Shown piece by piece: positions 115-8,079 of a stretch of DNA of 8,079 nt. Source of the stretch: a virus. Its lineage: Duplodnaviria; Heunggongvirae; Uroviricota; Caudoviricetes. The position numbers and the translations under genes were made by a program. The DNA lies in IMG/VR virus record IMGVR_UViG_2657244943_000011; one strand, 5' to 3'. The notes under the pieces were generated by a model. That model did no database searches. It was not told the origin of the DNA and was given only the letters and a program-made list of their open reading frames with translations. Position 1 is the first letter of the stretch. Each line of letters begins with the position of its first letter.

Positions 115-190
115 GCCGATATAGCTCAGTTGGTAGAGCAGCGCATTCGTAATGCGAAGGTCGTAGGTTCGACTCCTATTATCGGCACCA
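115..190 (+). tRNA. thrW: tRNA-Thr (anticodon CGT)
   Basis: 76-nt cloverleaf read directly: acceptor stem GCCGATA pairs with TATCGGC, D-arm GCTC-AGTTGGTA-GAGC, anticodon loop TTCGTAA (anticodon CGT, reads ACG), T-arm GTAGG-TTCGACT-CCTAT, encoded CCA at 188-190. Matches my recollection of E. coli thrW, a known island integration site. Confidence 0.9.
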
Positions 191-200
191 TTCTAATGTC

Positions 201-356
201 TCCCCAAGTCTACTCAAGTATTTAAAAACCTCTTATAATCCGCATGTTAGCGCCCCTTTTAGTCTTTTGACGTCTACTTAAGTACCCCAAAATCTACAGT
301 CAATTGGGGGTACTTTTGGGGGTATTTGCTGTTCAGTTTAGTGGAGGTACCCCCAA
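201..356. promoter_or_regulatory. att arm / integrase upstream region with clustered short repeats (probable integrase arm-type sites and int promoter)
   Basis: Direct repeats GTCTACTCAAGTA (208-220) and GTCTACTTAAGTA (272-284); CCCCAAGT at 202-209 and 351-358; GGGGGTAC (306-313) and GGGGGTAT (318-325) 12 bp apart; inverted partners GTACCCC at 282-288 and 348-354. Lies between the tRNA 3' end and the int start codon. Confidence 0.4.
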
Positions 357-1571
357 GTGAAACTCAATGCCCGTCAAATAGACACTGCCAAGCCAAAAGA
401 GAAGGCTTACAAGCTGGCTGATGGTGGTGGTCTGTATCTCTTGGTAAAACCTAGTGGAGGAAAATATTGGCGCTTCAAGTATCGTGTAGCTGGTAAAGAG
501 AAGCTGTTAGCACTAGGTGTGTATCCTGAAGTTACTTTGGCTGATGCTCGTGCAAAACGTGAAGAAGCTAAAAGGGGTATCGCTGGGGGTATCGATCCGA
601 TGGAAGCGAAACGAGAGGAAAAGATTGCCCGGGAAACGCAGTTAAACAACACCTTCAAAGATATTGCCCTTGAGTGGCACAGCAGCAAATTAAAAAAATG
701 GTCTGCTGGTTATGCTTCAGACATCCTCGAAGCCTTCAACAAAGATGTGTTCCCTTACATTGGCAAAAAACCAATCGCCGAAATCAAACCACTTGAACTG
801 CTGAATGTGCTGCGGCGCATCGAGGGGCGCGGTGCTACCGAAAAAGCCAAAAAAGTGAGGCAGCGATGCGGGGAAGTTTTCCGCTATGCAATTGTCACTG
901 GACGTGCTGAGTATAACCCTGCACCGGATCTCACCAGCGCGATGCAAGGTCATGAATCTAATCATTATCCTTTCCTCACAGCCAAAGAATTACCTGATTT
1001 TTTCAAGGCATTGTCCAGTTACTCAGGAAGTGCATTGGTTGTTATGGCGGCTCGTCTACTGATTATCACCGGTTTGCGGACTGGCGAACTGCGCGGTGCA
1101 TTATGGGATGAAATCGATCTCAACAAGGCTATCTGGGAGATACCTGCTTCACGGATGAAAATGCGTCGCCCTCATGTGGTGCCTTTGTCTAAGCAGGCTC
1201 TTTCGCTTATTGGGCAGATTAAAGAATTAACTGGCAATTATCCGCTTATGTTTCCCGGCCGTAATGATCCAAGGAAAACAATGAGCGAGGCTAGCATAAA
1301 CCAAGTATTTAAACGCATCGGCTATAATGGAAAGGTTACTGGTCATGGATTCCGGCACACCATGAGCACCATTTTGCATGAGCAGGGCTATAACACCGCG
1401 TGGATAGAGACGCAGCTCGCACACGTCGATAAAAACTCAATTCGTGGCACATACAACCATGCGCAATATCTGGATGGACGGCGGGAAATGCTTCAGTGGT
1501 ACGCCGATTATATGGATTCGCTCGAGCATGGCGGAAATGTGGTGCATGGTGAGTTCGGAAAATGCGGGTGA
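357..1571 (+). CDS. int: site-specific tyrosine recombinase, P4-type integrase
   Basis: 404-aa ORF, GTG start at 357 with GGAGG 10 nt upstream, TGA stop 1569-1571. N-terminus MKLNARQIDTAKPKEKAYKLADGGGLYL...KYWRFKYR is typical of the P4/CP4-57 integrase arm-binding domain; C-terminal catalytic motifs present (TGLRTGELRG box I, HGFRHT box II, Tyr-containing GTYNHAQYLDGRREM). Directly downstream of a tRNA in the same orientation. Confidence 0.9.
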   Translation: MKLNARQIDTAKPKEKAYKLADGGGLYLLVKPSGGKYWRFKYRVAGKEKLLALGVYPEVTLADARAKREEAKRGIAGGIDPMEAKREEKIARETQLNNTFKDIALEWHSSKLKKWSAGYASDILEAFNKDVFPYIGKKPIAEIKPLELLNVLRRIEGRGATEKAKKVRQRCGEVFRYAIVTGRAEYNPAPDLTSAMQGHESNHYPFLTAKELPDFFKALSSYSGSALVVMAARLLIITGLRTGELRGALWDEIDLNKAIWEIPASRMKMRRPHVVPLSKQALSLIGQIKELTGNYPLMFPGRNDPRKTMSEASINQVFKRIGYNGKVTGHGFRHTMSTILHEQGYNTAWIETQLAHVDKNSIRGTYNHAQYLDGRREMLQWYADYMDSLEHGGNVVHGEFGKCG

Positions 1572-1699
1572 CTGGTTGAGTATACAGTAGTAGACTTTGA
1601 GCGACGAAAGAAAAGGCTGTGTCTAGGGGCGCTCCCGAAAATCCGTACATCTCGACGGACTGGTACAGCCACTACAGTAGAGGACGCTGAGGTGTGCGT

Positions 1700-2510: not shown

Positions 2511-2655
2511 ATACCCTGAGGGTGATTTACTGTTACCCTGAGGGTATTTTTTTATCTTCCCCGTCAATTTTACCATCACCCTTAGGGTAGATTTCCTCCC
2601 GATTACCATCACCCTTAGGGTTAATTTCCTTCCGGTAACCATTAGGCCTGAGGGT
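2511..2655. repeat. array of near-palindromic 11-mers ACCCT(G/T)AGGGT including a 33-bp tandem direct repeat; probable regulator/recombinase binding sites upstream of alpA
   Basis: ACCCTGAGGGT at 2513-2523 and 2535-2545; ACCCTTAGGGT at 2578-2588 and 2611-2621; partial GGCCTGAGGGT at 2645-2655. Tandem 33-mers TTACCATCACCCTTAGGGTAGATTTCCTCCCGA (2570-2602) and TTACCATCACCCTTAGGGTTAATTTCCTTCCGG (2603-2635), 29/33 identical. Confidence 0.7.
2535..2554 (+). terminator. possible weak intrinsic terminator after the orphan gene (palindromic 11-mer followed by T7 run)
   Basis: ACCCTGAGGGT followed by A then TTTTTTT (2547-2553), 40-60 nt after the 2497 stop. The stem is short and would need pairing between neighbouring repeat copies, so this is tentative. 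Confidence 0.25.
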
Positions 2656-2724: not shown

Positions 2725-2922
2725 ATGTCAAATACGCTTATTCGTTTAACAGAAGTTCAGCGTAGAACTGGATATAGCAAGGCATGGATTTATCGCCTTA
2801 TGGGGCAAGGTAAATTTCCTGCATCAGTTAAAATTGGCTCGCGAGCTATTGCTTTCGTTGAGAGTGAAATTGACGAGTGGATTAATCAGCGTATTGCTGA
2901 ATCACGCGGAACAGCTACCTGA
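2725..2922 (+). CDS. alpA: AlpA-family (phage Vis/excisionase-like) helix-turn-helix transcriptional regulator
   Basis: 65-aa ORF with GAGGT 6 nt upstream of ATG 2725. Sequence MSNTLIRLTEVQRRTGYSKAWIYRLMGQGKFPASVKIGSRAIAFVESEIDEWI matches the AlpA/Vis HTH pattern as I recall it. Its position after a P4-type int is typical of CP4-57-like and PICI-like islands. Confidence 0.85.
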   Translation: MSNTLIRLTEVQRRTGYSKAWIYRLMGQGKFPASVKIGSRAIAFVESEIDEWINQRIAESRGTAT

Positions 2923-3000: not shown

Positions 3001-3801
3001 ATGAAACTGCGAAAAACGCCCGTACAGGGGCAGGGCTTCGTTCGGCCTGAAAACCAGAATCTGCAAAATTTCGGCGAAATTATCCCGGTTATTTCCGGCG
3101 TTATTGGCGGGCGTGAAACCAATATTGTTAGCGGCAGAGCGTTGCATAAGGCGTTAGGTGTAGGTCGCGTTTTCCGTTCGTGGATCAAGGGGCGCATTGA
3201 AGAATACGGCTTCACGGAAGGCGTGGATTATGAGGTTGTTGAATATTTGAGCCGACCCGATCCGGTGAGCGCAAAATCTCGCCAGCAAACAGCTCTTGAG
3301 TACATCATTACCGTGAACATGGCGAAAGAACTGGCGATGGTCGAACGCACCGAACAGGGGCGCGCCGTTCGTCAGTACTTCATCAAATGCGAGGAAGAGC
3401 TACACAAGGTTGCGCCTGTACGTTCCGCAGCGTTACGCCGGGAACTGAAAGCCCGTATCACAGTTGCCAGCTACTTTAAGCCAATGTGTGCCGCGCTGGA
3501 GGACTACCGGGCTGAACTGGATAAAAACACTCTACAGCACCACTACACCACGGAAGCCAATATGCTGGCGCGTATCGTGCTGGGTGGCATGACTGCAAAA
3601 CAGTGGGCGCAGGTGAACGGCATCACAGGCGAACCACGCGACCACATGAGCACGTTGCAGCTTGAGCACCTTTCTTACCTTGAGCAGAGCAATATCACGC
3701 TGATTGAGTTAGGCCAGGACTACCACCAGCGGAAGGCTGAATTAATTCGTCTTTCGCAGCGTTGGTTAGCCCGTCGCATGGAGGAAAACAGCCATGTGTA
3801 A
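3001..3801 (+). CDS. phage antirepressor-like protein (AntA/AntB N-terminal domain type)
   Basis: 266-aa ORF, AGGAG 6 nt upstream of ATG 3001, TAA stop 3799-3801. Segment RALHKALGVGRVFRSWIKGRIEEYGFTEGVDYEV...ITVNMAKELAMVERTEQGRAVRQYFIKCEEEL resembles the AntA-type antirepressor N-terminal domain from memory; not verified by search. Confidence 0.6.
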   Translation: MKLRKTPVQGQGFVRPENQNLQNFGEIIPVISGVIGGRETNIVSGRALHKALGVGRVFRSWIKGRIEEYGFTEGVDYEVVEYLSRPDPVSAKSRQQTALEYIITVNMAKELAMVERTEQGRAVRQYFIKCEEELHKVAPVRSAALRRELKARITVASYFKPMCAALEDYRAELDKNTLQHHYTTEANMLARIVLGGMTAKQWAQVNGITGEPRDHMSTLQLEHLSYLEQSNITLIELGQDYHQRKAELIRLSQRWLARRMEENSHV

Positions 3802-4260
3802 CGCTCTGACCGTTACAAAAAGAGAAAGCGCCCCGTTGCCGGAGCGCCTTTGTGAACGAATAGCCTACTGCGCCATATTGCTTACTGTCTACGAGGCAGA
3901 TTATAGCGTTGTGGTCGCACAGAGTGAAGGCGCTGATCACCGTTACTACAGCACGCCAGAAATGCAGAATATTTTGCTGCAAAATGCCGTTGGCCACGCT
4001 GTCCGGAAAGCAAAAAATTTTGCTGGTGGCGCGACTGATGCGATTTTGTCAGGTCGCCAGGTGCTGATCAATCTGATGTCTGATTTCGTTCTGGATAAAA
4101 CAAAGGCGACCGCAGAGAGCCGCCAGTGGAAAAGCTACATACTTGAACGCATCACCAACAATGCCACATTTGCGGCTGGTGGGCAATGTGTCAGCTTTGC
4201 ACCAATGACTCTAGGTTTAACTGAGGGTCATTATGGTGAATATGCTGGCTTGCTGGTGGG
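3794..4260 (+). pseudogene. uncertain ORF / possible gene remnant; good start signals but no credible stop (frame runs on to 5380)
   Basis: ATG 3794 overlaps the upstream stop (ATGTGTAA) and has TGGAGGA 8 nt upstream, the same coupled-junction architecture as real genes downstream. The first ~140 codons look protein-like; beyond about 4200 the translation becomes Cys/Ser-rich and then runs antisense through the minus-strand gene at 4519-4824. The end coordinate is arbitrary. Confidence 0.2.
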
Positions 4261-4518
4261 CTATTCCTGCTCTTTAACATCGCCATGCCGCGATGTTTTC
4301 CAGGTATGCGACCCCATTTTTGTGCGCCTGTACTCTTTAAGGAATTTCTCAAGGATAAACGCACAGGGCGCGAATCTGTCTGACTCATGCTCGTACGCTA
4401 TCTTTCTGCGCTGTCTTTTCCGTGCCGGTGATGGTGTATTGGTTGATTCTTTGTTGGTCATGGCGCTGCCCTGTAAAACGATGCACCGTAGTTCCTCACA
4501 CCACGGCGCTGGTGATGG

Positions 4519-4824
4519 TTACTCCTGTTCTTTGGCCTTGCGCCGCTGGAGTTCTTCACGCGCGACGGTGACGAGTTGCCCGATCTCCTCGGCTGCTTTG
4601 ACACCGATTTTTTCCACCTGCGCCAGTGCATCGAGCGAAGAAACCAGGGGATTTTCTCCGCTTCCTTCTGCCTGGCGGCGGGCGATTTCACCGCGAACGG
4701 CTGTAATCACGAAAGCGGCTATTGTTTCCCCTTCCGTTTTCGAATTTTCCATTTCCTCGATTACATCATGGGGGAAGCGGATATTTTTCATTTGCGATCT
4801 GCTGTTGATGTTTCCTGTTGCCAT
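4519..4824 (-). CDS. putative ribbon-helix-helix (Arc/MetJ/CopG-like) DNA-binding regulator
   Basis: 101-aa minus-strand ORF with well-formed composition, unlike the plus-frame translation of the same DNA. N-terminal KNIRFPHDVIEEME followed by helical GETIAAFVITAVRGEIARRQA fits a beta-strand/helix/helix RHH pattern. Divergent from the small-gene operon across a palindrome-rich intergenic region. Start could be ATG 4824 or the internal ATG 4791; neither has a strong SD. Confidence 0.5.
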   Translation of the reverse strand: MATGNINSRSQMKNIRFPHDVIEEMENSKTEGETIAAFVITAVRGEIARRQAEGSGENPLVSSLDALAQVEKIGVKAAEEIGQLVTVAREELQRRKAKEQE

Positions 4825-5014
4825 CAGAATGTCCGGTTATTTTGAGGTGTGTACACATTACACCAAAAGGTGTGTTGATAAAACACTTGACACTGTAGCA
4901 CACTTAAATCTAATCTGTGTATACACTAATGATTGTGGTGTATATACAGCAACGCCCCGCAGTGGTGGCACACATGCAGGGCGTCTAACCAAACCGTTAA
5001 ACGAGGTAACGATT
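4825..5014. promoter_or_regulatory. divergent promoter/operator region with three perfect 10-bp palindromes
   Basis: TGTGTACACA (4848-4857), GTGTATACAC (4917-4926), TGTATATACA (4939-4948); additional GGTGT/ACACC half-sites; consensus -35 hexamer TTGACA at 4887-4892 and TTGATA at 4875-4880. AT-rich relative to flanks. Confidence 0.5.
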
Positions 5015-5380
5015 ATGGCTGGAACACAGCATACCCAAACTCACCCTAAATTTATATACACCTTCCTGGCGGTGCACCGTGATTGCATAGCTGACGGTAA
5101 AAACACTGTACACGTAGCCGCTGATACGCTGGTTGATGCCTGCGAGATGCTCAATGACATGGGCTATATCTCGGCAACATGGAAAGGGCGCGAAGAAAAC
5201 ACGCTGTTTATTCAGAAATGCGAGAACAATTTTATCTGGCGTTTTATCGCCCTGAGCACAGCACAACCGCGCGTAATTCACATCGAGGCCACCAGCGAAC
5301 AGGAAGCGCGTCAGCAATCTCCTGATGGCTGCGTGATGGTATTCGCTGCCCGTATTCGCCAGGAGGTGCACCATGCATAA
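5015..5380 (+). CDS. hypothetical protein (first gene of small-gene operon)
   Basis: ATG 5015 with GAGGT 7 nt upstream, TAA stop 5378-5380; 122 aa. In frame with the run-on ORF 3794-5380 but with its own initiation signals. Stop overlaps the next start. Confidence 0.6.
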   Translation: MAGTQHTQTHPKFIYTFLAVHRDCIADGKNTVHVAADTLVDACEMLNDMGYISATWKGREENTLFIQKCENNFIWRFIALSTAQPRVIHIEATSEQEARQQSPDGCVMVFAARIRQEVHHA

Positions 5381-5738
5381 CCTGTCAATTTATGACCTTA
5401 ACAGCATTCAGTTTCGTGAGAAATTCACCGAGCAGCTACTGGTTAACGTGGAGAATGGACGCGTGGTAAGTAATTATCACCTGCCGGATGGTGCAATTGC
5501 CGGAAGCGTTGAAGCATTGCTGGAACTGGCAGAACGTGCGCGACTTATTAAGCCGTTAACGAACCATCACGATGATGATCTGCATTTTACCGGACGCATG
5601 GTGAGTCACTACGAAAACGGCGTCGAGGTATCCCGCGAACGGCTGCGTGATGATTGCTGTTTCGGAACACTGCCGGAATTTAGCGAACTGCTGACCCGTT
5701 GCGATTACCGGATCATTCAGGGGGGAAGTCATGGGTAA
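5373..5738 (+). CDS. hypothetical protein
   Basis: 121-aa ORF; strong SD AGGAGGT (5361-5367) 5 nt before ATG 5373; 8-nt overlap ATGCATAA with upstream stop; TAA stop 5736-5738. Confidence 0.65.
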   Translation: MHNLSIYDLNSIQFREKFTEQLLVNVENGRVVSNYHLPDGAIAGSVEALLELAERARLIKPLTNHHDDDLHFTGRMVSHYENGVEVSRERLRDDCCFGTLPEFSELLTRCDYRIIQGGSHG

Positions 5739-5931
5739 TCAGCCAGCAACAATGACAATTACCCTGAATGTGCCAGATGATTTCACCGGGCGCGTACTGG
5801 TTTACCTGGATAAAGGGAAAGTGAAATCACAATGCCGACTGCGAAATAATGAAATTGTAAGTACGGTAGAAGGCTTTTCTGAACTATGTATTCGTGCAGG
5901 AATAAAACCGGAACTGCTGACAGGAAAATAA
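5731..5931 (+). CDS. hypothetical small protein
   Basis: 66-aa ORF; start overlaps upstream stop (ATGGGTAA); purine-rich GGGGGGAAG just upstream; TAA stop 5929-5931. Confidence 0.6.
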   Translation: MGNQPATMTITLNVPDDFTGRVLVYLDKGKVKSQCRLRNNEIVSTVEGFSELCIRAGIKPELLTGK

Positions 5932-5935
5932 AACC

Positions 5936-6226
5936 ATGAAAAAGAAAAATTCTGGCTTTACTGCCAGCGGCCTCTCTCGGTCTGCAATTCGCTCTGGCGA
6001 TATTTACCGCGACACCAGACGTGGGGGACGAGTGGTTATTCGTCACGTTACGCCAGGCAATATCACCTACCGCCGTGAGGCTTACGAATATGACTGCGTA
6101 ATGCCGCGCCGTCAGTTTGAGCGTGATTTTATTCTGGTGGAAAACAAACAATTGGCGGTGGCAAGACGTGCAGCCTCGAATATTAAAAAAATCCGGGCAA
6201 TGTTGGTTGCGGGAGGTAAGAAGTGA
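5936..6226 (+). CDS. hypothetical small basic protein
   Basis: 96-aa ORF 4 nt after the upstream stop; Lys/Arg-rich termini (MKKKNSG..., ...VAGGKK); TGA stop 6224-6226 overlaps the GTG start of the next gene (GTGA). Confidence 0.6.
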   Translation: MKKKNSGFTASGLSRSAIRSGDIYRDTRRGGRVVIRHVTPGNITYRREAYEYDCVMPRRQFERDFILVENKQLAVARRAASNIKKIRAMLVAGGKK

Positions 6227-8079
6227 AAAACGCACCGAATTTAAAATATCAGCCAAAGGATAAATTCACCGAGGTAATCATTTTTGCCGGGACGGATGCT
6301 TACGCCCATGCTCAACACTGGATTGAAAGCGAAGGACGAAAACACGGCGATAACGTGCCACCTGTTTACCTGGGGCCAACGCAACTGGCAGATCTGGCTA
6401 ATATCCGCATTATCGACGATGAGCGCCGCTTTGCGCGTGTTTATATCGCGGGGGAGATAGAGCCAATCCAGATCAATGCTATCGCTGAAAAGCTGGCGCT
6501 GGCTGGCGTACAGGATGCGAAATTATACAAAGGCATCACCGACCGGGAGCCGGAGAACTGGCGCGACTACCTGCAACGGATCCGCGAACAGGCAGAGCGC
6601 GGGGAAACCATTCCTGAAGGAATCGGAATAGCTGGTGGATCACCCGGTAAAACAGACCCCATGAAACCGCATATTACCGAAAAAGACGGGGCGCTCTGGT
6701 ATATCGAGCCAATCCCCAACACCAGGGCAGAGGAGATGAATTATAAAGAAACCTGGCTGAGTGACCGGATGCGCACGGCAGGTATTGGTAACGACGGAAG
6801 GGAAGCGTATCTGATCATTGAAATGATCCCGGAAGGGACACAAAAAATTATTTACGAAGCGATGCCGCGCAATGAAATCGGTATGCCCGCAGGATGGGCG
6901 CGATTACGTGGGCGGGGAGTTGCAATCACTACCAGTGCCCATTTACTGAACAAACTGGCGGAATACCTGCAACGTCATGGAGATCGCACGGTGTGGGAGG
7001 TCACATCAACAGCAGGTTGGCATTGTGGAGCCTATGTTATGCCTGATGGCGAGGTGATTGGTGTGCCTGACCGTCCCGTAGCATTCTGCGGCGGATCTGC
7101 CGCCATCAAAGGCTATATTGTCAGGGGCACGGTGCATGAATGGCGAAATAATGTTGCTTCTCTGATGCGTGGCAATCACTCAATGATGCTTGGGGTGCTG
7201 GTCGGGCTGGCAGCCCCGCTAAATTCCCTTGTGGGTGGTAGTTGTTTTGGTATTCATCTTTTCGCGCAGTCGTCAGCGGGGAAAACCACGACTGTGGAGG
7301 CCGCCACCAGCCTTTATGGCGACCCTGAAATGCTTAAACTCTCGTGGGATGCCACCCGGCACGGGCTGACAGTGGAAGCAGCTGCACGTAATGACGGTTT
7401 TATCCCTATTGATGAAATTGGTCAGGGAGGAAGGGTTAATGACATTGCGCAATCCGCCTACAGCCTGTTTAACGGTGTGGGCAGGATTCAGGGGCGCAAG
7501 GACGGCGGTAATCGTGCGGTAATGCGCTGGAAAATAGCGGCACTAAGCACCGGAGAAGAAGATTTTGAAACCTTCCTGTTAAAAGGGGGAATTGCCCCAA
7601 AGGCAGGGCAACTGGTGCGACTGCTAAGCATTCCCTTTACCGATACAACGGTGTTTAACGGTTATGACGATGGTGATCAACATGCCAGGGCCATAAAGCG
7701 ACTTTCATCAAATTATTGTGGCGCTGCGGGACGTGAGTGGGTGCGCTGGTTATCCGCTCACAAGGAGCTGGCTATCAACACCACTTCAGATAAAGAAAAT
7801 GCCTGGCTGGGAAATCTGCCTGAAAATGCCTCGTCACAGGTAAGGCGAGTGGCATCGCGATTCGCCATGCTGGATGCAGCCGGAGAGCTTGCCACCGCAA
7901 TTACTGGCTGGACAACTGAAGAATGCCGGGAAGCAACGCAACGGGCTTTTGATGACTGGCTACAGGATTTCGGGCTGGAAAACCGGGAAAAATATCAGGT
8001 CATCAGTAAGCGTGCAGCAAGAACCGTATTGACGGGGATGTGTTATTCAGTCGGCAGTGCTACGCGCCAGGGGAGCAGT
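6223..8079 (+). CDS. P-loop NTPase, probable replication primase/helicase-like protein of the island (3' end truncated by window)
   Basis: Open frame 1 from GTG 6223 (in-frame TAA at 6217-6219 just upstream; GGGAGG 6211-6216) to the window end, at least 619 codons; not in the ORF track because it has no stop in the window. Walker A FAQSSAGKTT (about 7261-7290) and Walker B-like GFIPIDEIGQ (about 7396-7425). Large ATPase after small coupled genes is the usual position of the replication protein in P4-family/PICI-like islands. Confidence 0.7.
   Translation, partial: MKNAPNLKYQPKDKFTEVIIFAGTDAYAHAQHWIESEGRKHGDNVPPVYLGPTQLADLANIRIIDDERRFARVYIAGEIEPIQINAIAEKLALAGVQDAKLYKGITDREPENWRDYLQRIREQAERGETIPEGIGIAGGSPGKTDPMKPHITEKDGALWYIEPIPNTRAEEMNYKETWLSDRMRTAGIGNDGREAYLIIEMIPEGTQKIIYEAMPRNEIGMPAGWARLRGRGVAITTSAHLLNKLAEYLQRHGDRTVWEVTSTAGWHCGAYVMPDGEVIGVPDRPVAFCGGSAAIKGYIVRGTVHEWRNNVASLMRGNHSMMLGVLVGLAAPLNSLVGGSCFGIHLFAQSSAGKTTTVEAATSLYGDPEMLKLSWDATRHGLTVEAAARNDGFIPIDEIGQGGRVNDIAQSAYSLFNGVGRIQGRKDGGNRAVMRWKIAALSTGEEDFETFLLKGGIAPKAGQLVRLLSIPFTDTTVFNGYDDGDQHARAIKRLSSNYCGAAGREWVRWLSAHKELAINTTSDKENAWLGNLPENASSQVRRVASRFAMLDAAGELATAITGWTTEECREATQRAFDDWLQDFGLENREKYQVISKRAARTVLTGMCYSVGSATRQGSS

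Follow-up and report, generated by a model that had tools for sequence, protein, structure and literature searches.

The plus-strand frame that closes the window (the whole 8,079-nt stretch of DNA analyzed here) is, in all likelihood, the rep gene of a PICI-type satellite located by tRNA-Thr (CGU); it encodes a self-loading helicase of the DUF927 family with no primase, and was cut by an insertion sequence (IS) after codon 595. The frame had earlier been read, from the letters alone, as a probable island replication protein of primase/helicase type (hereafter the original prediction). The part of this reading that concerned an island replication helicase-initiator was retained and the primase part was not. 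Features of the window are listed in Table 1.

Table 1. Coordinates of features in the window, with the evidence on which each was assigned.
Feature	Position (nt)	Strand	Basis
tRNA-Thr (CGU), proA-thrW locus	115-190	+	ARAGORN, Rfam, RefSeq annotation of L001
Tyrosine integrase	357-1571	+	Pfam Arm-DNA-bind_3, Phage_int_M, Phage_integrase
AlpA-family regulator	2725-2922	+	Pfam Phage_AlpA, E 2.4e-19
DUF4222 small gene, 96 aa	5936-6226	+	Pfam DUF4222, E 2.6e-19
Shine-Dalgarno GGGAGG (6210-6215) and GTGA overlap (6223-6226)	6210-6226	+	Read from sequence and ORF table
Native part of rep, codons 1-595 of a 710-codon DUF927 helicase-initiator	6223-8005	+	ARS-C301/P0001 comparison, Pfam
N-terminal module NTD1, aa 1-126, alpha/beta, weak Toprim-like fold	6223-6600	+	
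Disordered linker, aa 127-144	6601-6654	+	pLDDT <50 at residues 127-144
Beta-rich N-terminal domain of helicase, aa 145-300	6655-7122	+	Model secondary structure; DUF927 match; Cch fold alignment
AAA+ ATPase core, aa 301-480	7123-7662	+	Motif coordinates and invariance
Walker A AQSSAGKT, aa 348-355	7264-7287	+	Motif coordinates
Walker B FIPIDE, aa 393-398	7399-7416	+	Motif coordinates
Sensor-1-like LSTGE	7543-7557	+	Inferred by position only
Candidate arginine finger R466	within 7609-7626	+	Inferred by position only
Helical domain, aa 481-595, cut by the IS	7663-8005	+	Model helices; junction
Presumed IS target site GGTCATCA, 8 bases abutting the IS end	7998-8005	.	E24377A IS-copy comparison
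Right (tnpC-side) terminus of an IS66-family, ISEc22-like IS, begins GTAAGCG	8006-8079	-	Identity to L002

The frame ran uninterrupted on the plus strand from the GTG at 6223 to 8079 (619 codons, no stop), and a motif search recovered both sequences named in the original prediction, FAQSSAGKTT and GFIPIDEIGQ. Residues G353, K354, T355, D397 and E398 were invariant across 35 homologues with identity down to 48%, so the Walker motifs are not chance occurrences; the residues of a P-loop core (K354/T355 in Walker A and D397/E398 in Walker B) were present in these 35 sequences. The predicted translational overlap was also seen, the GTG start sharing GTGA with the TGA stop of the gene at 5936-6226. 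This DUF4222 gene is a conserved upstream neighbor of rep: it adjoins the 5' side of rep in three loci (L003, L005 and L007), and among the matches listed to the rep 5' end in E. coli, nearly all have DUF4222 upstream.

A domain search, proposed as a check in the original prediction, assigned the protein to the DUF927 helicase family (PF06048; 140 bits, cut-off 22.6, E 1.6e-40, aa 227-434). Sequence matches to solved structures were obtained for SaPIbov1 Rep (8tch, E 1.9e-6, residues 244-584) and SCCmec Cch (5dgk, ~2e-6). A structural model was made with AF2 on the intact homologue P0001, which is 98-99% identical to the window protein (pLDDT 78.6), and was searched with Foldseek. The best matches were Cch (E 4e-21, TM 0.65-0.67, 596 columns) and SaPIbov1 Rep (E 7e-19), followed by BrxL at 1e-5; identity to Cch and SaPIbov1 Rep in the fold alignments was low (13-18%). 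Cch is described in PMC7581432 as a DUF927 protein with a relationship to SaPIbov1 Rep. The two are MCM-like AAA+ helicases that self-load at their own origin. On these sequence and fold matches, the rep protein belongs with Cch and SaPIbov1 Rep in the DUF927 family, and the claim of an island replication protein of helicase-initiator type was supported. It is from these distant homologues (13-18% identity) that helicase activity, iteron binding and the function of the C-terminal domain are predicted. In its helicase part the protein also matched PHROG 1139/8841, labeled 'DNA primase(/helicase)'. Domains of the P4-alpha type (D5_N, Pox_D5/DUF5906 SF3, AEP) gave no Pfam match at E ≤ 1 or 0.01, and a P4-alpha/D5-type SF3 primase-helicase was rejected, since no D5_N or SF3 domain was found.

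The primase half of the original prediction was not supported, as no zinc-ribbon, Toprim, AEP or D5_N domain was found in the rep protein with Pfam and NCBIfam models (including PF08273 and PF13362), and NTD1 (aa 1-126) matched no model of either collection. Relatives of ~900 aa do have a Zn-ribbon and Toprim, yet they align to rep from residue 143 only, the position at which the alignment of P0028 begins. Identity to relatives shifts abruptly within the linker (97% before and 31-56% after for P0091), and in the representatives examined NTD1 was fused to four unrelated helicase classes (DUF927, RepA/AAA_25, D5-type SF3 and VapE); at the disordered linker it recombines independently of the helicase. 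DNA encoding NTD1 was found in ~22% of complete E. coli genomes. A fold search of a viral library returned one uncharacterized match (E 1e-3) and otherwise only weak Toprim matches. Tentatively, NTD1 and the upstream DUF4222 gene might form an undescribed unit that replaces the primase domain, either as a non-canonical primase or as an adaptor recruiting DnaG or the replisome. It is unlikely that the protein is a bifunctional primase-helicase in which NTD1 is an active, highly diverged Toprim-type primase. NTD1 does lie in the Zn-ribbon and Toprim slot of the ~900-aa relatives (77% identical in the helicase part), its four helicase partner classes usually carry fused primases, and several NTD1 fusions are named 'DNA primase family protein' by RefSeq. 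However, Pfam and NCBIfam primase models did not match, the zinc-ribbon cysteine motif is missing, a near-invariant Ala stands at the position of the Toprim catalytic Glu with A-G-variable at the DxD position, and profile-profile comparison (hhalign) of NTD1 with the primase region of the relatives was negative. A pairing of these two regions by eye (VIIFAG with VIIAEG and IAGEIE with AADND) is therefore suggestive at most and was not counted as evidence.

The original prediction was confirmed as to frame, motifs and overlap but not in taking the frame for a single gene lacking just its C-terminus, which was expected beyond the window; instead, an IS66-family insertion cuts the gene after codon 595. 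In intact E. coli copies the native rep has 710 codons (L001, 18223-20355; intact protein WP_000786266.1), and the window copy is native through codon 595. Compared with the uninterrupted E. coli ARS-C301 gene, it had 1 differing base (7915) before 8008, and the window protein aligned to P0001 at 98% identity over 596 residues with no gaps. Intact E. coli islands matched the window up to 8007 only, and bases 8006-8079 were identical (74/74) to L002 from position 3219, at the tnpC-side end of an IS66-family element whose boundaries were set from both element ends in L002. Over its final 24 codons the frame therefore reads through into the IS. The GT at 8006-8007 completes codon 595 and is shared with the IS terminus. 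The matching IS copy is annotated as a tnpA-tnpB-tnpC element, and at 8006-8079 the transposase genes would be on the minus strand. IS66-family elements make 8-bp target duplications; in E24377A, GGTTATCA stands on both sides of a copy of this IS. The remainder of the IS at 8006-8079 and, beyond it, the duplicated copy of GGTCATCA would lie outside the window.

The cut falls within helix 588-604 of the helical domain of the intact protein, and takes from rep the end of this domain and the entire predicted C-terminal winged-helix domain (aa ~605-710; a strand-helix-helix-hairpin pattern at aa 647-704 of the intact homologue in the AF2 model), which is absent in the window copy since native sequence ends at aa 595. 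The IS (~2.4 kb in the E24377A copy) would also separate rep from its origin. On both counts the window copy of rep is probably a pseudogene and the island replication-defective. There is only a slight chance that the source genome has an uninterrupted rep and that the junction is an artefact of assembly or of the contig end. The junction is known from the window alone, which ends 74 bases inside a multi-copy repeat; its exact 40-base pattern had no match in genome or metagenome contigs, no complete E. coli genome spanned it, and the predicted 634-aa rep-IS fusion product was not found in the protein collection. Against an artefact, the switch occurs exactly at the canonical GTAAGCG terminus, joining at the first base of the IS is unexpected for a random chimera, and the 8 bases before the junction resemble GGTTATCA, the duplicated target site around the copy in E24377A.

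At the proA-thrW locus of E. coli the island directly follows tRNA-Thr (CGU), and tRNA-Thr, int, alpA and rep are all on the plus strand of the window. AlpA is the hallmark activator of Gram-negative PICIs (PMC6092414, PMC10111431), and an AntA/Bro-type gene is also present. The intact island (L001) is ~15.3 kb between direct repeats and, except for a weak TerS-like HTH, no phage structural genes were found in it; E. coli 55989 is one strain with an intact island. The context of tRNA-Thr, int, alpA, AntA/Bro, DUF4222 and rep points throughout to a PICI.

A search for an origin within the window found none, and CGGGATA occurs there as two scattered copies only. A search for an iteron cluster downstream, the other check proposed in the original prediction, located one directly 3' of intact copies of the gene, and the iteron varied with the protein. 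In the intact island, 12 of the 20 CGGGATA copies of the 32-kb L001 locus fell in 20388-20662 (~2.9 copies are expected by chance in the whole locus), the first lying 33 bases past the rep stop (20355). The groups of iterons were opposed (+++ / --- / -- / ++ / --) and separated by AT-rich spacers of 21-27% GC. The Salmonella homologue had the same iteron and the L001 layout, and a capsid-encoding island had GGGATAA in a similar layout. A 51%-identical E. coli homologue, of which the C-terminal domain is only 31% identical, had the unrelated iteron TGTCTCA, with 9/9 copies downstream of the stop. The putative iteron origin was thus 3' of the replication gene in L001 and three related islands. 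The change of iteron also parallels divergence of the beta domain, so the data do not mark the C-terminal domain as the determinant of specificity. SaPI Reps bind iterons directly 3' of rep via a C-terminal winged helix, and these iterons flank an AT-rich center (PMC9371898). E. coli PICIs likewise have an origin of this layout on the 3' side of their replication gene, and in EcCICFT073 the rep-ori region drives replication (PMC6092414). By its arrangement, the CGGGATA cluster is a match to the published PICI origin layout. Together, a DUF927/Cch-type helicase and an iteron origin support the designation 'island replication protein'.

A non-replicative NTPase such as a BrxL-like defense AAA+ ATPase, the alternative named in the original prediction, is very improbable, and a defense role for rep was rejected: BrxL, RavA and ComM do follow the two replication helicases in the fold ranking, and a DUF4747 pair of unassigned role lies at the distal end of the intact island, but no PADLOC defense family matched the protein at E ≤ 0.01, BrxL trails Cch (E 1e-5 against 4e-21), the iteron origin 3' of the gene varies with the protein, and rep stands where the replication gene is found in known PICIs (PMC10111431, PMC6092414).

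By analogy with the distant homologues, replication of the intact island by a self-loading DUF927 helicase would proceed as follows. The C-terminal winged-helix domain would recognize the 7-bp CGGGATA iterons, and Rep hexamers would assemble on either side of an AT-rich spacer. The hexamers would then melt the spacer and translocate 3'->5' with the Walker A/B ATPase. Priming would presumably be left to host DnaG, because the rep protein is without a primase domain.

Among known systems, SCCmec Cch shares DUF927 with rep and is its best fold match (~590 columns; E 2e-6 in the P-loop region). A small gene stands upstream of both, LP1413 before cch as described in PMC7581432 and DUF4222 before rep, and no relation between LP1413 and DUF4222 was detected with Pfam. 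Identity to Cch is 17-18%, rep adds the 126-aa N-terminal module and linker, and Cch is of a cassette chromosome, whereas rep is in an Enterobacteria PICI-type satellite. In SaPIbov1, as here, intact rep is followed by opposed iterons flanking AT-rich DNA (PMC9371898). The two proteins are 13% identical, and in SaPIbov1 a separate AEP primase is encoded beside rep (PMC7581432), whereas no primase gene or domain was detected here; the iterons reported for SaPIs are penta- or hexanucleotides, in contrast to the 7-mers in five clusters of the intact island. Phage P4 alpha likewise combines origin recognition and helicase in one satellite polypeptide (PMC6092414), but is of another helicase superfamily, rep having no D5_N, Pox_D5 or AEP match.

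The gene order of EcCICFT073-type PICIs is shared (tRNA/att, int, alpA, Bro/AntA zone, replication gene, origin, then perC and others, in one direction), as are the island size of ~15 kb and the origin 3' of the replication gene in Gram-negative PICIs (PMC6092414, PMC10111431); a close paralogue, P0048, belongs to an island that also encodes capsid, portal and terminase, as in capsid-forming PICIs. DUF927 proteins of Gram-negative PICIs have been published under 'Primase' (PMC10111431), whereas rep is without a primase domain; in addition, the window copy of rep is IS-disrupted. The Zn-ribbon, Toprim and DUF927 proteins of enterobacterial prophages and PICIs (P0028, P0048) are 65-89% identical to rep by domain from residue 143 and have nearly the same iteron, GGGATAA. 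They begin with 240-380 residues of DnaG-type primase (PF08273, PF13362), in place of which rep has an unrelated module of 126 aa.

The rep protein is an ordinary member of an already known helicase family, and the main gain from its analysis is a tidier annotation. A gene so far labeled only 'DUF927 domain-containing protein' can be named as that of the Rep helicase-initiator in a PICI associated with thrW, its origin clearly defined by CGGGATA iterons, and the flag of IS inactivation bears on satellite replication and spread in the source strain. The matched Rep/iteron pairs (CGGGATA, GGGATAA, TGTCTCA) would be convenient for tests of origin specificity in Gram-negative satellites. The swappable NTD1 is the only point with wider reach: if it has a part in priming or in recruiting the replisome, the replication of the many E. 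coli satellites that have no recognizable primase would be accounted for.

The rep frame opens with GTG at 6223 on the plus strand and runs without a stop to the window end (619 codons), as the original prediction had it. The P-loop and Walker B claimed for it were located at residues 348-355 (AQSSAGKT, nt 7264-7287) and 393-398 (FIPIDE, nt 7399-7416). Across 35 aligned homologues, with identities as low as 48%, G353, K354, T355, T356, D397 and E398 were invariant; the motifs are therefore selected and no chance occurrence. The reported overlap with the preceding gene was also found, GTGA containing the rep start and the stop of the 96-codon upstream gene, and GGGAGG lies eight bases 5' of the start.

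That the gene encodes an island replication protein was supported by its DUF927 family membership, its relatives Cch (the SCCmec helicase) and SaPIbov1 Rep, and an iteron origin 3' of intact copies. Pfam DUF927 was matched at residues 227-434 (140 bits, cut-off 22.6). By sequence only two solved relatives were found, both at ~2e-6: Cch (5dgk) and the helicase-active replication initiator of SaPIbov1 (8tch). Fold searches used the AlphaFold model of P0001, the intact 98-99% identical homologue (mean pLDDT 78.6). The best match was Cch (E 4e-21, TM 0.65-0.67 on target) and the second SaPIbov1 Rep (E 7e-19); the next, MCM-clade AAA+ BrxL, RavA, ComM and MCM2-7, were >10 orders of magnitude weaker. 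A published account gives Cch a DUF927 domain and relates it to SaPIbov1 Rep (PMC7581432). The alternative role of a defence ATPase was dropped, as none of the anti-phage defence models matched Rep.

Of the proposed primase/helicase type, the helicase-initiator part stood and the primase part did not: zinc-ribbon, Toprim, AEP and D5_N models gave no match to Rep at E <= 1. Zinc ribbon and Toprim (PF08273, PF13362) do occur in close relatives of ~900 aa, which align to Rep from residue 143 only (77% identity). Rep residues 1-126 form a module different from the primase region of these relatives, and a profile-profile comparison of the two returned nothing. The Toprim catalytic Glu position holds a near-invariant Ala in the module, and the DxD position is unconserved. 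On these three grounds (domain models, profile comparison, catalytic positions) a primase reading of Rep was judged unlikely; given the missing models, the Ala and the unconserved DxD, the module was treated as one without assigned function and with possible Toprim ancestry. Priming would be left to the host primase (DnaG).

The module defines a small family without annotation: searched exhaustively with its profile, 1.84 billion representative proteins gave only 143 matches, and its start was the protein N-terminus wherever present among them. It fills the slot where mobile-element helicases usually carry a primase; in mobile elements, DUF927 domains substitute for known helicases behind primase domains (PMC5862659, PMC4889955). 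Ten longer matches were examined, and four helicase modules were found behind it (proteins P0204, P0207, P0209, P0210, P0226, P0251): DUF927, AAA_25 (RepA-like), D5_N + DUF5906 + Pox_D5 (SF3) and VapE-like. Module DNA (window 6223-6600) was present in 1213/5426 complete E. coli genomes, where it forms the start of genes labelled DUF927, 'DNA primase family', 'helicase RepA family' or VapE. P0091, the Rep of related island L003, is 97% identical to P0001 in the module and 31-56% in the remainder (alignment A2), which argues for recombination at the linker. In P0028, a ~900-aa relative, identity is 65-89% past residue 143, and the part before that residue is unrelated. By these comparisons the rep gene is a mosaic, and the pattern points to exchange of the module as a whole, with the disordered linker (window 6601-6654) as the recombination point. 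The module might be the sole part of the locus with some novelty.

A DUF4222 gene lay just 5' of the module-bearing gene in nearly all cases among the matches listed. In all related islands examined it was 5' of the replication gene, overlapping its start in most; L005 is an exception, with a 213-aa gene in between. Its position was independent of the helicase class or N-terminal domain that follows, and recalls the small ssDNA-binding gene 5' of cch in SCCmec, the likeness being one of position. That module and DUF4222 together serve as a functional primase substitute is considered rather unlikely.

The frame had been taken for one gene whose C-terminus was merely missing, which had to be revised. 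The window differs from intact E. coli islands at one base (7915), and the match extends only to 8007. Over 8006-8079 the window has exactly the bases of one end of an element of the IS66 family, annotated as ISEc22-like, corresponding to the tnpC-adjacent end of the reference copy in E. coli E24377A (L002). There the element starts exactly with GTAAGCG, and an 8-bp duplication, GGTTATCA, lies on either side of it (L002 3211-3218, 5655-5662). The eight bases 5' of the IS in the window (7998-8005), GGTCATCA, differ from this duplication at one position, which hints at a target preference of the element. Since the IS end starts at 8006, native rep ends at codon 595 (...REKYQVIS) and the last 24 codons are read-through into the IS. 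If the IS continues as in E24377A, the fusion would reach a stop after 634 codons; intact rep of E. coli ARS-C301 (WP_000786266.1) has 710. The insertion falls within helix 588-604, so the entire C-terminal domain is gone from the window copy, and origin recognition should be abolished. For SaPI Rep, full ATPase and helicase activity is reported to require this domain as well (PMC9371898). In the window allele the IS would now stand between rep and origin, unless the origin is lost; searches of complete E. coli genomes and of genome and metagenome contigs yielded no source sequence past 8079. With the domain lost and the origin separated or lost, the allele is most likely non-functional.

A downstream iteron cluster, suggested as a check, was present directly 3' of rep in the intact island of L001, a 32-kb ARS-C301 locus. 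In the window the IS follows native rep directly and leaves no place for origin iterons 3' of the gene, and a window search for CGGGATA gave two scattered copies only; statements on the C-terminal domain and origin rest on near-identical or related islands outside it. In L001, 12 CGGGATA copies occupy 20388-20662, in intergenic DNA right after the rep stop (20355), as three plus, three minus, two minus, two plus and two minus copies, with spacers of 21-27% GC between groups. The whole locus holds 20 copies (2.9 expected; no shuffle reached 20). Across the intact relatives (Table), the origin arrangement is kept while the iteron varies with the Rep protein. This layout fits described SaPI and E. 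coli PICI origins: SaPI origins have six to twelve short iterons directly 3' of rep, opposed around an AT-rich region and bound by the Rep C-terminal winged helix (PMC9371898), and the rep-ori segment of the E. coli PICI EcCICFT073 drives replication (PMC6092414). The beta domain diverges in parallel with the C-terminal domain among relatives, so our data give protein-iteron co-variation and do not assign specificity to the C-terminal domain; its placement there would follow from the staphylococcal work.

By analogy with homologues, Rep would form hexamers, its winged helix would bind the iterons ATP-independently, the AT-rich spacer would be melted, and translocation would proceed 3'->5', with R466 as putative arginine finger and LSTGE as putative sensor 1.

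The window starts in the last part of the proA region, and the tRNA gene comes next. In the intact island, 487 bp of intergenic DNA separate rep from ProQ/FinO-like and PerC-like genes; further 3' come genes without assigned function, a weak TerS-like HTH protein and a DUF4747 pair. The intact element is bounded by direct repeats (window 291-325; L001 27550-27584) that lie 15,259 bp apart; their shared core, TTGGGGGTACTTTTGGGGGTAT, is likely the attachment-site core, and the left repeat lies ~100 bases 3' of tRNA-Thr, outside the gene. The organisation agrees with published Gram-negative PICIs, in which int, alpA and the replication gene are co-directional, with the origin 3' of the latter, over 10-20 kb (PMC6092414, PMC10111431).

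Further observations concern the remaining island DNA. The Rfam int-alpA RNA motif (RF02996) was matched at window 1616-1683 (+) (44.2 bits, gathering score 35.8), which separates the integrase gene from its 3' neighbour. Two tandem 33-nt copies of TTACCATCACCCTTAGGGTAGATTTCCTCCCGA, 88% alike (window 2570-2635, L001 14570-14635), lie ~90 bases 5' of alpA and may be a regulatory site. A 528-codon plus-strand frame (3794-5380) overlaps minus-strand genes 4261-4461 and 4519-4824, which strongly match phrog_21027 and phrog_6522 (YlcI/YnfO). In RefSeq the annotation covers just the final 190 codons of the frame (4808-5380, Icd-like), of which residues 134-189 alone match phage repressor families; the bulk of the frame is probably non-coding. 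Residues 171-255, in the C-terminal part of the AntA/Bro-type protein, match PDC-S22 (E 8e-10), a candidate defence family in PADLOC. At the distal end of the complete island (L001 25469-26961), the DUF4747 gene and its 199-aa neighbour match PHROG families without assigned function; both may serve as accessory or defence cargo. The cargo end of L004, a related island with a TGTCTCA-type rep, holds a gene (12523-13953) with a SIR2_2 domain, which is common in defence systems.

Table. Positions of features in the window, in related islands and in the P0001 model
Sequence	Feature	Position	Remarks
Window	tRNA-Thr(CGU)	115-190	
Window	Tyrosine integrase	357-1571	Same direction as rep
Window	Unknown-function gene	Between integrase and alpA	Same direction as rep
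Window	AlpA-family regulator	2725-2922	Same direction as rep
Window	AntA/Bro-type protein gene	3001-3801	Same direction as rep
Window	Icd-like/repressor-like gene	3' of AntA/Bro gene	Same direction as rep
Window	Three small overlapping genes	Directly before rep	Same direction as rep; DUF4222 last
Window	DUF4222 gene	5936-6226	
L003	DUF4222 gene	5714-6004	
L005	DUF4222 gene	5008-5352	
L007	DUF4222 gene	5786-6004	
L005, Salmonella (P0006)	CGGGATA iterons	3' of stop	10/11 locus copies; same layout; C-terminal domain 81% to P0001
L007, capsid-encoding E. coli island (P0048, Zn-ribbon + Toprim + DUF927)	GGGATAA iterons	3' of stop	10/11 copies; same layout; C-terminal domain 72% to P0001
L003, E. 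coli (P0091)	TGTCTCA iterons	3' of stop	9/9 copies; opposed clusters; C-terminal domain 31% to P0001
P0001 model	N-terminal module	aa 1-126	alpha/beta
P0001 model	Linker	aa 127-144	Disordered
P0001 model	Helicase N-domain	aa 145-300	Beta-rich
P0001 model	ATPase core	aa 301-480	Walker A/B
P0001 model	Helical domain	aa 481-604	Helices
P0001 model	C-terminal domain	aa 605-710	Strand-helix-helix-hairpin 647-704, winged-helix pattern

The protein was already in RefSeq under a domain-of-unknown-function name, and earlier descriptions exist of this type of island, of its origin layout and of the DUF927 helicases. The present analysis assigns the gene as the island Rep, finds no recognisable primase domain in it, provides the iteron sets and indicates that the IS has probably inactivated this copy.
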